Source: Promethearchaeota archaeon (GTDB taxonomy: Archaea; Asgardarchaeota; Lokiarchaeia; Sigyniarchaeales; SOKP01). From it: a stretch of 64,000 bases of DNA. Shown here piece by piece: positions 195 to 44,824 of this stretch. The DNA lies in contig JAEOTR010000046.1 in assembly GCA_016839705.1 (NCBI GenBank), forward strand, positions 1 to 64,000. Direction: 5' to 3'. The notes beneath the pieces are model-generated. The model was given only the letters and a program-made list of their open reading frames with translations, ran no database searches and had not been told where the DNA came from. Positions within the stretch are counted from its first letter, which is position 1. Each line of letters begins with the position of its first letter. A program made the position numbers and the translations under genes.

Positions 195-1343
195 ATGAAA
201 CAAGTACTTTATACCTTAAAAATTAAGGAATCAGTTGAAGTAGAGGAGATTAAATTTGCATTAGATAAACTTTTATATGTTCCTGATTTTCAGTTGAAGG
301 AAAAAATAATCACAGAATTATGTACCTACCTTGCTTCAAAATTCTCCGATCCTGATTATAAACTTAAGGTTTTTATCGCTTACGCAGGGCTAGAAGTGTG
401 TGGATTTGTTATAACTCAAATTCATCCGACATATACAAGTTATAGTCGTAAGTGTGGGACATTTGGATGGTTAAATGCTGAAGATTTTGTAATATGCCAG
501 GAACTTATACGCAATTGTGAACGGTTTGTTAAAAAAAATAAAATTAGAAAATTGAGAGGAAATATCAATTTTCCGAAACATTTAGGAGGAATAGGGTTTC
601 AAACTATGGGATTTGAAGCCCCGATGATGTGTGGGATCGCTTTCAATGACCCCAAATCAAAAATAAGACAGTTTCTTGAGAGATTGGGGTATAATAACAA
701 TGCTGAATATTCATGCGTTCATGTTACTGATTCTTCGTGGGAAAAAGGTCAAAAAAAGCTAGATGAGAATATAAGACTCACCTATTTATCAATTGAACAA
801 ATGTTTGAAAGAAAAGAAGAGATCCTTGATATTATACGTGGATCCTTTCAGGTTTTATTACCCGACTCTTCTGGTGGTGATACTGGTTTTAATGAGATAC
901 TTGAATTCTACAAACAAATTCCTGATTCGTTTTATAAACTCCCTGACGACTTTGATCCATATCAATTTTCAAAGAGAAAAGAATATCGAGAGGCTTGGGA
1001 TAGTTGTGACCTAGAGAAAGTAGTTACTTGGGCTCCGTTCGCATTCGATAAGAACACTGATTTAATGGTTGGAGTTATATTTAGTATACCCAACTTGTAT
1101 CAATTGTGGTTAAATGAGCCTTTAACTCACACTAATGTTGATACTGCTATGGTTCATAAAAATTATGCAAGGAAGGGGATTTTTTCTAATCTAAACAATA
1201 TTGGTCAAATTACCTTAAGTTTCAATGGCATAAACTATGTGGAAGGAACAACGATATGGTCTAACAACGAAAAAGCCGTCGCTGCTATATTTCCCCATTC
1301 GAAACATCGTAGAAAACATGTAGTTTATCAAAAAAGAATATAG
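195..1343 (+). CDS. GNAT-family N-acyltransferase (YghO-like, tandem GNAT)
   Basis: 382 aa; GTFGW..., LRGNINF...GFEAPMM...FLERLGY and C-terminal VHKNYARKGIF acyl-CoA-binding motif, TIWSNN. Confidence 0.6.
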   Translation: MKQVLYTLKIKESVEVEEIKFALDKLLYVPDFQLKEKIITELCTYLASKFSDPDYKLKVFIAYAGLEVCGFVITQIHPTYTSYSRKCGTFGWLNAEDFVICQELIRNCERFVKKNKIRKLRGNINFPKHLGGIGFQTMGFEAPMMCGIAFNDPKSKIRQFLERLGYNNNAEYSCVHVTDSSWEKGQKKLDENIRLTYLSIEQMFERKEEILDIIRGSFQVLLPDSSGGDTGFNEILEFYKQIPDSFYKLPDDFDPYQFSKRKEYREAWDSCDLEKVVTWAPFAFDKNTDLMVGVIFSIPNLYQLWLNEPLTHTNVDTAMVHKNYARKGIFSNLNNIGQITLSFNGINYVEGTTIWSNNEKAVAAIFPHSKHRRKHVVYQKRI

Positions 1344-1398
1344 AAAATATCTGATTAAATTTTTCCTTTAAATATAAATAAAATAAGAGAAGCCCATT

Positions 1399-2604
1399 AT
1401 GACAGAAAGTTTAGTTAAAGAAGTATTTGCAAAGAAAGGACATGATATTTGTCAGAAATGTATTCTTATGGATGGTCCCTTTGGAGTAAGTATTAATACA
1501 AACGGACTCTGCAATTTTTGCGAGGACCCTACATTTGAGACTCCAACCTGGAAAAAAACAATAATTAGCAACTCTTTAAGAATAGAAAAACGAGAAGAAT
1601 GGAGGAATCTTGTTAAATACTGGAAAAAAGAATTTGGGACAGAAAGACATTGTTGTGTACTTGGTTTTTCAGGTGGGAAAGACTCAACCGCGCTTTTAGA
1701 CACATTTGTGAACGAATACCACCTTAAACCATTTTTAGTTACAGTAAATGTAGGTTTCATGACCAATGTAGCAAAGAATAACATCAAACAGGCTTTAAGT
1801 AAAATGGGTCTTGAAGACGATCATATTTTTATTGAGGATTCTTTTCAAACATTCACTAAGCTGTATAAATACTTTTTATCAGAATTTAAACCTAAATCTG
1901 ATGAAAAGTGCGTTTCTTTATCAATTTGCCATACATGTACTGATTTAATTCATACTGCACTTGTTAAAGAAGCGATGAAAAGAGATCTTAATTACGTTGT
2001 TGTAGGGTTTTCTCCTGATCAAATTGCTAGATATTTCTATGAAACGTTTCCTAAAGACACTTTAGAAGATGGTCTTCCTCATCCCAAAGCACATATTGAC
2101 AATCTCGATGAAGATGATCTTAGATGGTATCTTAGTTCAGATACTCCTTTGGAAAAAATTCCTAGAGTGCTTTATCCTTACCATGTGATCGATTACGACC
2201 AAAGTGAAATTATACAGAGGATTGAGTCAAAAGCTTTAATAGAGATTGGGAAAGGAGATCCTGTCTTAACGAATTGTCATGTAGTTATGACAGGCATGAT
2301 GTATGACTTATATCGGTTTGGAGGGGTCTCTTATTCATTTCAATATGCAGAATTAGTACGTCAACATGAGGACCCAGAGAACTGGAAGCAAGAAAGGAAG
2401 AGTTGGTTGAGAACAATGGTAAGAGTTGCCAAGGGGCTTTTAAATGGACAACTCTCGAAAGAAGGGATTAATATGGTACTTGATAGAATTGGCAAATCAC
2501 GACAAGAATTGATATCAAGTATCCAGCAGCAAGTAGATCAAGACCCAAATAAGGAGCAAATCCTGAGGAATATAGGATTGCTTAGGAAAGGAAGATTAAA
2601 ATAA
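1399..2604 (+). CDS. PP-loop ATP pyrophosphatase (N-acetyl-sugar amidotransferase-like adenine nucleotide alpha hydrolase)
   Basis: SGGKDS PP-loop; N-terminal CQKC..CNFC; internal CHTC; TNC near C-terminus. Confidence 0.65.
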   Translation: MTESLVKEVFAKKGHDICQKCILMDGPFGVSINTNGLCNFCEDPTFETPTWKKTIISNSLRIEKREEWRNLVKYWKKEFGTERHCCVLGFSGGKDSTALLDTFVNEYHLKPFLVTVNVGFMTNVAKNNIKQALSKMGLEDDHIFIEDSFQTFTKLYKYFLSEFKPKSDEKCVSLSICHTCTDLIHTALVKEAMKRDLNYVVVGFSPDQIARYFYETFPKDTLEDGLPHPKAHIDNLDEDDLRWYLSSDTPLEKIPRVLYPYHVIDYDQSEIIQRIESKALIEIGKGDPVLTNCHVVMTGMMYDLYRFGGVSYSFQYAELVRQHEDPENWKQERKSWLRTMVRVAKGLLNGQLSKEGINMVLDRIGKSRQELISSIQQQVDQDPNKEQILRNIGLLRKGRLK

Positions 2605-41135: not shown

Positions 41136-42041
41136 TTGATTGGAAAAGCCTTTTTGAAGGAATTAATTGATTATCCCCATAGGTTGTCTGATTTGGGATT
41201 TGAAGAGGTTAGTAAAATTCTTAAAAGTGCCAAAAAAGACTTTGAAAATGAGTATTTGTTATTGGAATTCAATTTACGAAATCCAGAGAAAGAAATTTAT
41301 GTAATTGGAGATATCCATGGAAATTTAGAAACTTTATTAGAGTTATATGATATAATTAAAGCACAAAATCCAGAATTTGTAATTTTTTTAGGAGATATTG
41401 TTGATCGAGGTTCTAAGCAATTGGAGTGTTTATTGTTTATATTAACCCTAAAAGTCTTAAATCCCCAAAGATATTATTTATTAAGGGGAAATCATGAAAC
41501 TTTAGAAATAAATCAAAATTATGGGTTCTATCAAGAATTTTTAAATAGATTTAAAGATCCTCGTAAATTTATTGAAATATCAGCTGTTTACAACTCACTT
41601 CCAATTTGTGCAGTTATTAACAGCAAAATATTATGTCTTCATGGTGGCATTCCTCAAGATATACACATACTTCAAAAAATAAAGGATATTAGAACTACTG
41701 ATTTAAGTGATATATTTGAATCAATTGCACAAAGCTTTTTTCAGATAATGTGGAATGACCCTAAGATGAAAGTGAAAGGATTTACTGATAGTTTTAGAGG
41801 TCCGGGAATTAAATTTTTTGGTGAGGATGTTTTTGATAGCTTTCTAAAAGAAAACAATTTAGAATTGCTTATCAGAGCACATGAATGTTTCCCAGAAGGA
41901 TTTAGGTGGTTCTTTCAGAAAAGGTTGTTATCAATATTTTCTTCAACAAATTACCGAGGATCATTTTCACCAAATCCTGCATCCTATGCAGTAATTAGGA
42001 AAAATGTAATTATCCCAAAAATTGTGAATATGAAAGAGTGA
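41136..42041 (+). CDS. PPP-family Ser/Thr protein phosphatase
   Basis: GDIHG, GDIVDRG, LRGNHE, HGG, WNDP, RAHE, FSSTNY. Confidence 0.93.
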   Translation: MIGKAFLKELIDYPHRLSDLGFEEVSKILKSAKKDFENEYLLLEFNLRNPEKEIYVIGDIHGNLETLLELYDIIKAQNPEFVIFLGDIVDRGSKQLECLLFILTLKVLNPQRYYLLRGNHETLEINQNYGFYQEFLNRFKDPRKFIEISAVYNSLPICAVINSKILCLHGGIPQDIHILQKIKDIRTTDLSDIFESIAQSFFQIMWNDPKMKVKGFTDSFRGPGIKFFGEDVFDSFLKENNLELLIRAHECFPEGFRWFFQKRLLSIFSSTNYRGSFSPNPASYAVIRKNVIIPKIVNMKE

Positions 42042-42055
42042 TATTAACAATAATT

Positions 42056-42319
42056 TTATGTTATTTGTGAAGCATCTGGTTTTATAAAGAGAAGATTATT
42101 ACCACGGATGAATATTTCATTATATTTAGCCACGGGGCTTCCATCTAAAATTTCGGTGGCATCAGTTAGAATCATATTCATATACGCATCTATTTCCCTT
42201 AATAATCCTTTATATTCTGTACCATCTTTTAACCTAAGCAAAATGACACTATTCTGAGCTTGCTGTAAGATAGAAAGAGGATTTTTTGATCGTTGTTGAT
42301 TGTTATCTCTATTTGACAT
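42056..42319 (-). CDS. Sm/LSm family RNA-binding protein (SmAP)
   Basis: Sm1 LKDG.EYKG.L..IDAYMNMIL and Sm2 IFIRGNN. Confidence 0.92.
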   Translation of the reverse strand: MSNRDNNQQRSKNPLSILQQAQNSVILLRLKDGTEYKGLLREIDAYMNMILTDATEILDGSPVAKYNEIFIRGNNLLFIKPDASQIT

Positions 42320-43060: not shown

Positions 43061-43939
43061 TTATATTTTATAAAAATTATTTATAATTTCCTCGGGGTTA
43101 CTTTCAACATTGAATTTCTTTAAAAAATAACTACAAACATTTACAATATCCCTTTCTAAAAATGAATAAGCATTAGGATGATCTCGAGAGACCCATTGTA
43201 ACCAATCAATGATGAGGATATTACCCTCTTCATCTAAAACAATATTAAATTCACCTAAATCTCCATGAATCATCCCAACATTTTGAAAAATTGTTTTCAT
43301 TTGTTTTATGATTCGATTAAAAATTTTTTGAGGTTTTTTAATATTCTTATGATAAACTAATTCTTTTCCTCTTAAATATGACATAATAATTACATGACGA
43401 TTATACTCTATGGGTTTTGGGGTGTTTAATTTCAAAGGGTGAATTTTTTCTAACGCTTCAAATTCTCTTTTAGCAGCAAGTCTATTAACATAAAGCCAAG
43501 AATAGTGACTTCTATTACCCAAAAGATCTCTATATTTTTTAATAGCTCTAAAACTAGTTCGTCCCATGCGATAAAACTTTGCTGCAAAGATATTTTCATC
43601 ATCATCAATACAACTATATACATCTGATTCTTTTCCCTTTCCAATTAAGGGCCCAAGCTGGCTAATCACATTTTTCTCAACTAATGTGTGTAGAGCAAGC
43701 AAATCATAAGCTTTTGAGTTAAGTGTATAAGCGATTTCAAATTTCGAAGCATCTCTTATTATAAGATCAAGCTTATGAACCTTATTTAAGCGAAACAATG
43801 TTTCCTCCATCTTATATCTAGAGTAAAATTTAATATTTTTAATGGTCACATATTTAGATCTTTTCATTCCAATCTCTATTGCCATTAAAATTCTAAAATC
43901 TTCTTTTTCCAAAGTAGGTAAAAGATTAGCGATCTCCAC
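43061..43939 (-). CDS. rio2: RIO2 atypical protein kinase
   Basis: N-terminal wHTH, GKGKESDVY, KFYRMGRTSF, IHGDLGEFNI, IIDW. Confidence 0.93.
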   Translation of the reverse strand: MEIANLLPTLEKEDFRILMAIEIGMKRSKYVTIKNIKFYSRYKMEETLFRLNKVHKLDLIIRDASKFEIAYTLNSKAYDLLALHTLVEKNVISQLGPLIGKGKESDVYSCIDDDENIFAAKFYRMGRTSFRAIKKYRDLLGNRSHYSWLYVNRLAAKREFEALEKIHPLKLNTPKPIEYNRHVIIMSYLRGKELVYHKNIKKPQKIFNRIIKQMKTIFQNVGMIHGDLGEFNIVLDEEGNILIIDWLQWVSRDHPNAYSFLERDIVNVCSYFLKKFNVESNPEEIINNFYKI

Positions 43940-43949
43940 GATTTCTCAG

Positions 43950-44732
43950 CTAGAATATATATTTTCGATAGGTTTTTAGAAAAGATATAAATTTGTATAT
44001 AGATGGTAGTTCAAAAATAACCACAGAGAAAAGATTAATTGATATGAAAACAATTATTTCACTTTTCAAAATATAGAAAATGGTTAATGTAGAACCGCTT
44101 TGGAACGTGAAGAGATAAATATCGAAATTTAAATACAGTATTAACCCAAAACAAATAATTAAACCAACAAGGGAGAAAATAATTATCTGGTTTTCAACCT
44201 CAATTAATCCGATAATTAAATTAATTGCTAAAAATAAAATTGTTAGCATAATAAAGATTCTGGAGGTATTTATCCATGATTTGAAAGAGGTATTCTGGAC
44301 TTCTAGATTTATGCTAGAAATTGGCCAAAGCAGAGCTGTGCTCAAATTTAATAAAGAAATTATTGGCATAATAATTACAGCTAAAATAGAAATGAAAAAA
44401 GCACGTATCGTCATAAATCTACTAATTATTAAAGAACTCACCCCCTCATTTTTTGCGGATTCCAACATAGCTTCAATTTTCTTTTGAATTTCAATAGGAA
44501 AATTTTTCTTTGTTAACATAAGCTGAATGTTGAGTTCAGGGAAATTAGAAATTAACTCTTTTAGCTGACCATACCCTATATTGTATCTTTGTCTGGTACT
44601 TTTTGATCCACTCCATAAATAGATCAATTCTTTTTCTTCATCCAAAATCACGCACATATCATGTGATAATAGTGCATGTTCTTCTTCTCTCCACTGAGAT
44701 TTGGAATCATCAAAAATGAATGTTCTCAGCAT
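43950..44732 (-). CDS. Gelsolin-like domain fused to four predicted TM helices
   Basis: LLSHDMCVILDEEKELIYLWSGSKS matches the gelsolin-repeat core; C-terminal half has 4 hydrophobic segments. Confidence 0.65.
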   Translation of the reverse strand: MLRTFIFDDSKSQWREEEHALLSHDMCVILDEEKELIYLWSGSKSTRQRYNIGYGQLKELISNFPELNIQLMLTKKNFPIEIQKKIEAMLESAKNEGVSSLIISRFMTIRAFFISILAVIIMPIISLLNLSTALLWPISSINLEVQNTSFKSWINTSRIFIMLTILFLAINLIIGLIEVENQIIIFSLVGLIICFGLILYLNFDIYLFTFQSGSTLTIFYILKSEIIVFISINLFSVVIFELPSIYKFISFLKTYRKYIF

Positions 44733-44824
44733 TTATCATCTAATTATCTTAACAAGAGGAAGTTTTTATTCTTTTCTATCATACATCAAGCAAATTAAAA
44801 CCTAATACTGACTTATGCTTATTA

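Follow-up and report, generated by a model that had tools for sequence, protein, structure and literature searches.

Introduction

The characterised gelsolins of Asgard archaea, ProGel, 1DGelX and 2DGel, are all soluble proteins (PMC7444086, PMC9433394), as are the five gelsolin-homology (GH) proteins of Ca. Lokiarchaeum ossiferum (preprint 10.1101/2025.11.30.690169), in agreement with the remark on solubility made in the initial annotation of the locus described here. The published Asgard actin regulators comprise only soluble profilins and gelsolins, and the Asgard GH proteins studied so far all act on or bind actin (PMC7444086; preprint 10.1101/2025.11.30.690169). The simplest of the described systems is ProGel (PDB 7C2F; Akil et al. 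2020, PMC7444086), a free soluble protein made of a single GH domain of ~90 residues with a D...W-G motif. A crystal structure shows ProGel on actin, and at high concentration the protein bundles filaments; it hardly affects polymerisation, binds in a loose, cofilin-like pose, and has no calcium sites (PMC7444086). The Asgard 1DGelX and 2DGel proteins, and the eukaryotic gelsolin, villin, CapG and adseverin, contain the homologous GH domain (PF00626) and are likewise soluble, with extra GH repeats or a coiled-coil X domain, WH2-like linkers, and calcium sites. The gelsolin-like domain of Sec23/Sec24 (COPII), part of a large soluble coat protein, has a gelsolin-type fold without known actin binding (PMC7444086), and thus the fold by itself does not guarantee an actin-binding function.

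Cultured Lokiarchaeia form actin-filled protrusions and crawl (preprint 10.1101/2025.11.30.690169). No actin-membrane linker has been described for Asgard archaea in the literature searched, and a full-text search returned no account of a membrane-integral gelsolin-domain protein in archaea. The eukaryotic linkers use FERM, talin or calponin-homology domains, and not a GH domain placed inside a membrane protein. Here we analyse a gene from the window (the whole stretch of 64,000 nucleotides under study) for which the best-supported conclusion is a new gelsolin-family architecture, namely a ProGel-type head joined to four membrane passes and conserved within a single Asgard order.

Results

Gene and locus

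The protein consists of 260 residues, begins with an ATG codon and has the N-terminus MLRTFIFDD; the coordinates of its parts are collected in Table 1. Conservation across homologues and genomes rules out a spurious open reading frame. The TAG stop codon occupies positions 43950-43952 and the GTG start of the next gene, rio2, lies at 43939, which reproduces the spacing of 10 nt reported in the initial annotation. The identity of Rio2 is given by its Pfam matches (RIO1, E 9e-51; Rio2_N, E 6e-19). Judged by this short spacing, the two genes are probably co-transcribed. The AT-rich spacer on the 5' side possibly holds a putative promoter of the gene's own, and upstream of it lie the beta, alpha and delta genes of a 2-oxoacid:ferredoxin oxidoreductase (OFOR).

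Table 1. Features of the gene, the encoded protein and the flanking spacers, with positions in the window.
Feature	Position	Strand	Evidence
AT-rich spacer of 92 nt, 5' of the ATG, after the OFOR beta gene	44733..44824	-	sequence, ORF positions
Whole gene, gelsolin-homology head and four-helix membrane module	43950..44732	-	ORF list, translation; 260 codons + TAG
Gelsolin-homology (GH) domain, residues 1-96	44445..44732	-	Pfam, profiles, Foldseek, VIA
Linker, residues 97-105, with conserved R105 before helix 1	44418..44444	-	pLDDT <50 at residues 95-99
Predicted membrane helix 1, residues 106-135	44328..44417	-	AF2 helix; hydropathy peak 2.5
Predicted membrane helix 2, residues 147-178	44199..44294	-	AF2 helix, hydropathy
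Predicted membrane helix 3, residues 181-201	44130..44192	-	AF2, hydropathy, conservation
Loop 3, predicted to face outward, residues 202-222	44067..44129	-	AF2, invariant columns, low K+R
Predicted membrane helix 4 and basic C-terminal tail KFISFLKTYRKYIF, residues 223-260	43953..44066	-	AF2 helix 223-259
Spacer of 10 nt, stop codon to the rio2 GTG start	43940..43949	-	direct sequence reading

The gene order OFOR-beta, membrane-gelsolin gene, rio2, methyltransferase, Sm is found at all 30 of the 30 same-genus loci, with the same spacing to rio2, and at most of the 8 loci from other genera of the source family. At the loci of the L. ossiferum family, TFB takes the upstream place and rio2 is missing. 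Since the neighbours differ there, the adjacency to rio2 reflects stable vertical inheritance and not a functional unit, and we reject a functional link to rio2, the synteny being a feature of the family level. The Sm-like protein gene of the conserved block, downstream of rio2, is located at 42056-42319 (minus strand), and a PPP-type metallophosphatase, recognised by the motifs GDIHG...GDIVDRG...GNHE, is encoded at 41136-42041 (plus strand). The stretch was detected in four marine-sediment DNA runs of one study, with no RNA run listed.

The gelsolin-homology head

The N-terminal head contains the motif LLSHDMCVILDEEKELIYLWSGSKS at residues 21-45, so that the core pattern of gelsolin repeats assigned in the initial annotation to the first ~95 residues is indeed present. 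Within it, the D...W-G motif (the 'DWG' motif of PMC7444086) reads ILD31...YLW40SG42. Among 44 order-wide sequences G42 is invariant, D31 is kept in 34 and W40 in 28, the remaining ones having Y or F at this position; the only invariant residues are D25 and G42, both of the gelsolin core.

Taken as a single sequence, the protein matches Pfam Gelsolin (PF00626) over residues 19-65 with an E-value of 0.0067 and 16.7 bits, below the curated cut-off of 21 bits, and the phmmer match to ProGel (7c2f_B) is weak (E 0.087). The gelsolin match reaches E<0.1 for 9 of the 44 family members when these are searched alone. A profile of 32 close homologues run against the PDB places ProGel 7c2f_B first (E 0.001), followed almost exclusively by villin, CapG, adseverin, and gelsolin. 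With the 44-sequence order-wide profile the matches are villin (3e-11), gelsolin (3.3e-8), ProGel (8.3e-7), and Loki 2DGel (9e-4).

The AF2 model, built on the family alignment, has a mean pLDDT of 84.9 and shows the strand and helix order of gelsolin. The head comprises strands at residues 2-8, 13-16, 26-31 and 36-41, the main helix (47-62), a further strand (70-73) and a helix at 80-96. In Foldseek searches of the PDB, ProGel is the leading match (E 2.5e-5, TM 0.70 on the target, 87 columns of 88), and the best 50 matches are gelsolin-family domains throughout, with no Sec23/24 chain among them. VIA, which is independent of Foldseek, superposes 84 of 88 residues on ProGel with a Z-score of 10.3 and an rmsd of 2.5 Å, followed by adseverin with a Z-score of 9.4. 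An independent model of the L. ossiferum orthologue (pLDDT 87.8) shows the same architecture and again has ProGel as the best match (TM 0.73). The structural comparison of the head with gelsolin domains that had been suggested at the outset thus yields a gelsolin fold by AF2, Foldseek and VIA. On the basis of these models and profiles we firmly assign residues 1-96 as a genuine GH domain with ProGel as the nearest structure.

The mean pairwise identity across the order is 0.30 for the head vs 0.20 for the membrane part, and in the most distant members the profile match is confined to residues 2-93. With D25 and G42 invariant in addition, no other part of the protein is conserved as well across the order as the head.

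Membrane module and topology

The remainder of the protein folds, in the AF2 model, into four long helices (residues 106-260, pLDDT mostly >88) that coincide with four hydropathy peaks above 2, so the four hydrophobic helices proposed to follow the head stand on both lines of evidence. Helix 2 ends in a predicted cytoplasmic turn, E178-x-E180-x-Q182, which is kept in the source family in invariant or near-invariant columns. In helix 3, G196 and Y200 (G190 and Y194 in L. ossiferum numbering) are kept order-wide, and so is the LFxF motif of loop 3 (L207, F208, F210). The strand 218-222 of this loop pairs in the AF2 model with the strand 142-146 of loop 1, which gives a small two-stranded sheet. 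The polar and aromatic positions conserved in the source family are W153, S157, G175, E178, E180, Q182, L207, F208, F210, D225, and E241. The membrane part, with its sheet predicted to face outward, exceeds in size and in conservation what a simple anchor would require.

The protein lacks a signal-like hydrophobic segment at its N-terminus. The family mean number of K+R residues is 2.6 before and at the start of helix 1 (1.6 for residues 100-107), 0.2 in the turn between helices 2 and 3, and 3.7 in the C-terminal tail, where the mean of D+E is 0.1; all three segments are placed inside. On the outside, the means are 0.4 for loop 1, about 1.1 for the outer start of helix 2, and 1.1 for loop 3. 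In total, 6.5 basic residues fall on the proposed inner segments vs 2.6 on the outer ones. The orthologues of the L. ossiferum family have an extra C-terminal tail of 35-60 residues, which is highly charged and fits a C-terminus inside the cell. The positive-inside bias and the lack of a signal peptide make it likely that both ends of the protein, and hence the head, are cytoplasmic, as had been anticipated for the head in the initial annotation.

An N-x-S/T sequon (NLS, NLT or NIS) is found at the predicted outer end of helix 1 in most members of the source family (N129-L130-S131 in the source protein, positions 44340-44348), and two further sequons (NTS) are present in the source protein, in loop 1 and at the start of helix 2. 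The sequons may be sites of N-glycosylation, which would support the topology; the one in helix 1 is not conserved in the L. ossiferum family.

No specific known relative of the membrane module was found with VIA, NCBIfam or the ESM Atlas. The wide VIA search returned generic helical bundles only, with designed proteins at Z-scores of 12-15, values which are within the stated noise for helical bundles; NCBIfam gave no match; in the ESM Atlas a search by features led only to the family's own cluster, and one by structure only to generic helical bundles (TM up to 0.63). The talin rod bundles that appear among the generic four-helix matches in VIA (Z-scores of 10-11) are within the same noise.

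Family and distribution

A word-indexed search finds 89 close homologues, nearly all of 257-261 residues and all from Asgard MAGs; every one is annotated as 'hypothetical' and has no Pfam domain. An exhaustive HMM search of 1.84 billion representative proteins gives 93 matches, and all of the full-length ones (240-395 residues) carry both the head and the membrane module. The short matches begin at their own residue 1-3 and align to the middle of the profile, and look like contig-end fragments and not like membrane modules devoid of a head or fused to another partner.

In a scan of 400 genomes of the phylum the gene is present in 128, almost always as a single copy. It is found in 111/134 genomes of the source family (the source genome is counted separately), 12/14 of the L. 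ossiferum family, and 3/4 of a third family of the same order, one copy of which clusters with a protein labelled Sigynarchaeota; all other families contribute 1 of about 247 genomes. The fusion is thus a single-copy gene in 126 of the 152 genomes of one Asgard order and is essentially absent elsewhere. The NCBI MAGs that contribute homologues at 50-60% identity bear the labels Thor-, Hod-, Odin- or Hermodarchaeota; as the GTDB-based scan confines the family to one order, these organism labels appear unreliable.

The lone outlier (L044:646-1782, minus strand) is located on an 8-kb contig of another family. It lacks the first three GH strands; the second half of the GH domain (from MYIWNGPKS), the linker and the start of helix 1 are joined in frame to a 10-helix EamA-type transporter, and a second EamA gene adjoins it. 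With half of a GH domain on so short a contig, it probably represents a remnant of recombination or a chimera of the assembly, and we do not accept GH + EamA as a second architecture.

The orthologue in Ca. L. ossiferum is NEF87_002464 (UYP46179.1), annotated as hypothetical. GNAMCCOK_02486, considered as the L. ossiferum orthologue in proteomics, was rejected, as it is a protein of 54.8 kDa. A conserved C-terminal motif, [KR]P[ST]ILRD[KR]..V.[LM].EI, predicted to be cytoplasmic, follows a short helix in 13 of the 44 sequences. These belong to a subclade that includes L. ossiferum (L041:1764-1850, minus strand); the motif is missing from the source protein. By eye only, it loosely recalls the Asgard WH2-like LKDV/LRRV motif.

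Actin and gelsolin context

Three genes of the actin family are present in the source genome, together with five further GH proteins, which are soluble; none of the five contains a hydrophobic segment. The best of the actin-family genes (441 bits to Pfam Actin, a frame of 382 residues) is found on the same contig, contig 32, at 98134-99246 (minus strand), ~54 kb away and outside the window; it is not adjacent and no linkage is implied. A soluble two-domain gelsolin (2DGel) of 335 residues is encoded on contig 64 at 733-1737 (minus strand). An LLKDV WH2-like motif lies between its domains, and the protein further contains an acidic linker and, at the C-terminus, a CxxC...CxxC zinc-ribbon that corresponds to Pfam DUF7904 in the homologues. 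More than 100 homologues show 75-96% identity in domain 1.

The main helix in the head has a solvent-exposed face (residues 47-52, 55, 56, 58 and 59) that is basic and, by per-column entropy, moderately conserved in the source family. Across the order the same positions are essentially free, with entropies of 3.0-3.5 bits, whereas the buried positions of this helix are kept (G/A53, L60, F/Y64). We matched seven pairs of genomes by contig or by NCBI locus-tag prefix. In these, the identity to the copy of the source genome is 54-73% for the head vs 82-93% for 2DGel domain 1; the GH domains of 1DGelX/2DGel-type proteins are thus far more conserved in the matched genomes. The head diverges about 3x faster than the soluble 2DGel domain 1. 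The variability of the helix face across the order and the fast evolution of the head weaken the case for a classical actin grip.

Discussion

With respect to ProGel, the head is the same kind of single GH domain, at 19-21% identity, and both lack a complete calcium site. The differences lie in the context of the domain: in place of a free-standing protein of ~90 residues, there are 155 more residues with four predicted membrane helices, joined through a linker of 10 residues. For ProGel the contact with actin is seen in a crystal structure, while the head described here is known from sequence and from a model. The likeness to ERM proteins and to talin/integrin is one of function only, in the proposed coupling of cortical actin to the membrane, and that to tetraspanins and MARVEL proteins is one of topology only (four passes, cytoplasmic ends, two outward loops); our searches found no relation in sequence or fold to any of these.

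Our tentative preference, held at somewhat less than even confidence, is that the head docks Lokiactin at the membrane, with low affinity and helped by its confinement to the membrane plane. The protein would span the membrane with both termini in the cytoplasm and carry a ProGel-type head at the N-terminus, which the linker of ~10 residues would hold against the inner face of the membrane. In the membrane, the four helices would form a bundle, the two outward loops making up the small sheet of the model. The head would bind the sides of filaments or their subunits weakly, as soluble ProGel does, and being held in the plane of the membrane would make up for its low affinity. In this way the protein could tether or organise actin at the membrane, both in the cell body and in protrusions. 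The contact with actin is suggested by fold homology with ProGel alone. Docking is favoured by the closeness of the fold to an actin-binding protein, found again for the L. ossiferum orthologue, by the likely cytoplasmic topology with the head as the best-conserved part, by the presence of actin-family genes and soluble GH proteins in the source genome, by the tight and stable fusion of the two parts in the full-length proteins among the 93 matches, and by the vacancy left in the literature searched for an Asgard actin-membrane linker. Against it speak the free helix face and the fast divergence of the head, the score of the single sequence below the Pfam gelsolin cut-off, the elaborate membrane module, and the restriction of the family to one order, while actin is found in all Asgard lineages. 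UYP46179.1 is also missing from the Lokiactin Co-IP list, which names five GH proteins (preprint 10.1101/2025.11.30.690169), the authors of which warn that membrane proteins are under-represented by the method. A more far-reaching form of the docking model, in which the protein is the first dedicated Asgard actin-membrane coupler, the gelsolin head holding Lokiactin and the outward mini-sheet contacting the cell surface, appears rather doubtful.

The same observations can be read differently, and it is quite possible, though less likely than not, that the gelsolin fold was repurposed for another partner, and that the main function lies with the four-helix module and its outward mini-sheet, which would act as a tetraspan-like organiser of surface or membrane proteins, or as a small channel or sensor. 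A head that evolves ~3x faster than the actin-constrained 2DGel domain 1 of the same genomes, with a main-helix face unconstrained across the order, fits this reading, and Sec23a is cited as a gelsolin-like domain without shown actin binding (PMC7444086). The four long helices with their conserved polar and aromatic positions in the source family, and G196, Y200 and the LFxF loop, kept order-wide, point in the same direction, as does the missing Co-IP entry, which for a membrane protein is weak evidence. However, ProGel and other actin-binding GH domains are the closest in structure, Sec23/24 being absent from the best 50, every Asgard GH protein tested so far binds actin, and the resemblance of the membrane module to generic helical bundles only suggests no alternative activity. 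It is unlikely that the protein is instead a membrane-localised regulator of actin assembly, the head of which binds monomers or filament ends and sets where filaments start and stop, for example at the tips of protrusions. The position of the head within ~10 residues of the membrane would suit such a role, and the [KR]P[ST]ILRD tail motif of the L. ossiferum subclade loosely recalls the WH2-like motif that follows 2DGel domain 1; yet this likeness was noted by eye only, the source protein has no C-terminal motif, and ProGel, the closest relative, barely affects polymerisation and binds in its loose cofilin-like pose. The variable helix face and the fast evolution of the head count here too.

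A calcium-responsive membrane sensor, acting through the type-2 calcium site of gelsolin, seems to us very improbable. D25, invariant in the 44 sequences, aligns in the HMM alignment with the type-2 site aspartate of gelsolin repeats; we tentatively take it to be this residue from the gelsolin G1 numbering and from that alignment. In the L. ossiferum orthologue the main helix begins with AEERE, which in the alignment resembles the EER of gelsolin G3. In the source family, however, the start of this helix is basic (GSKSTRQRY, with T46-R-Q-R49 in the source protein; consensus GPKSKKxKFRK), and the site, which requires both the aspartate and a helix-start glutamate, lacks the latter; ProGel, the closest structure, is also without calcium sites. 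Because basic residues replace the helix-start glutamate, the head in the source family is probably unresponsive to calcium.

A conserved, single-copy and membrane-integral GH protein is a concrete candidate for the attachment of Lokiactin to the membrane, and the presence of NEF87_002464 in the cultivable Ca. L. ossiferum makes this candidate directly testable. If the protein is a coupler, the protrusions and the crawling of Lokiarchaeia would depend on a gelsolin-domain linker, a design without a known eukaryotic user. If the head binds no actin, the protein would represent a prokaryotic recruitment of the gelsolin fold for another membrane-proximal role, which would bear on the diversification of this fold before eukaryotes.
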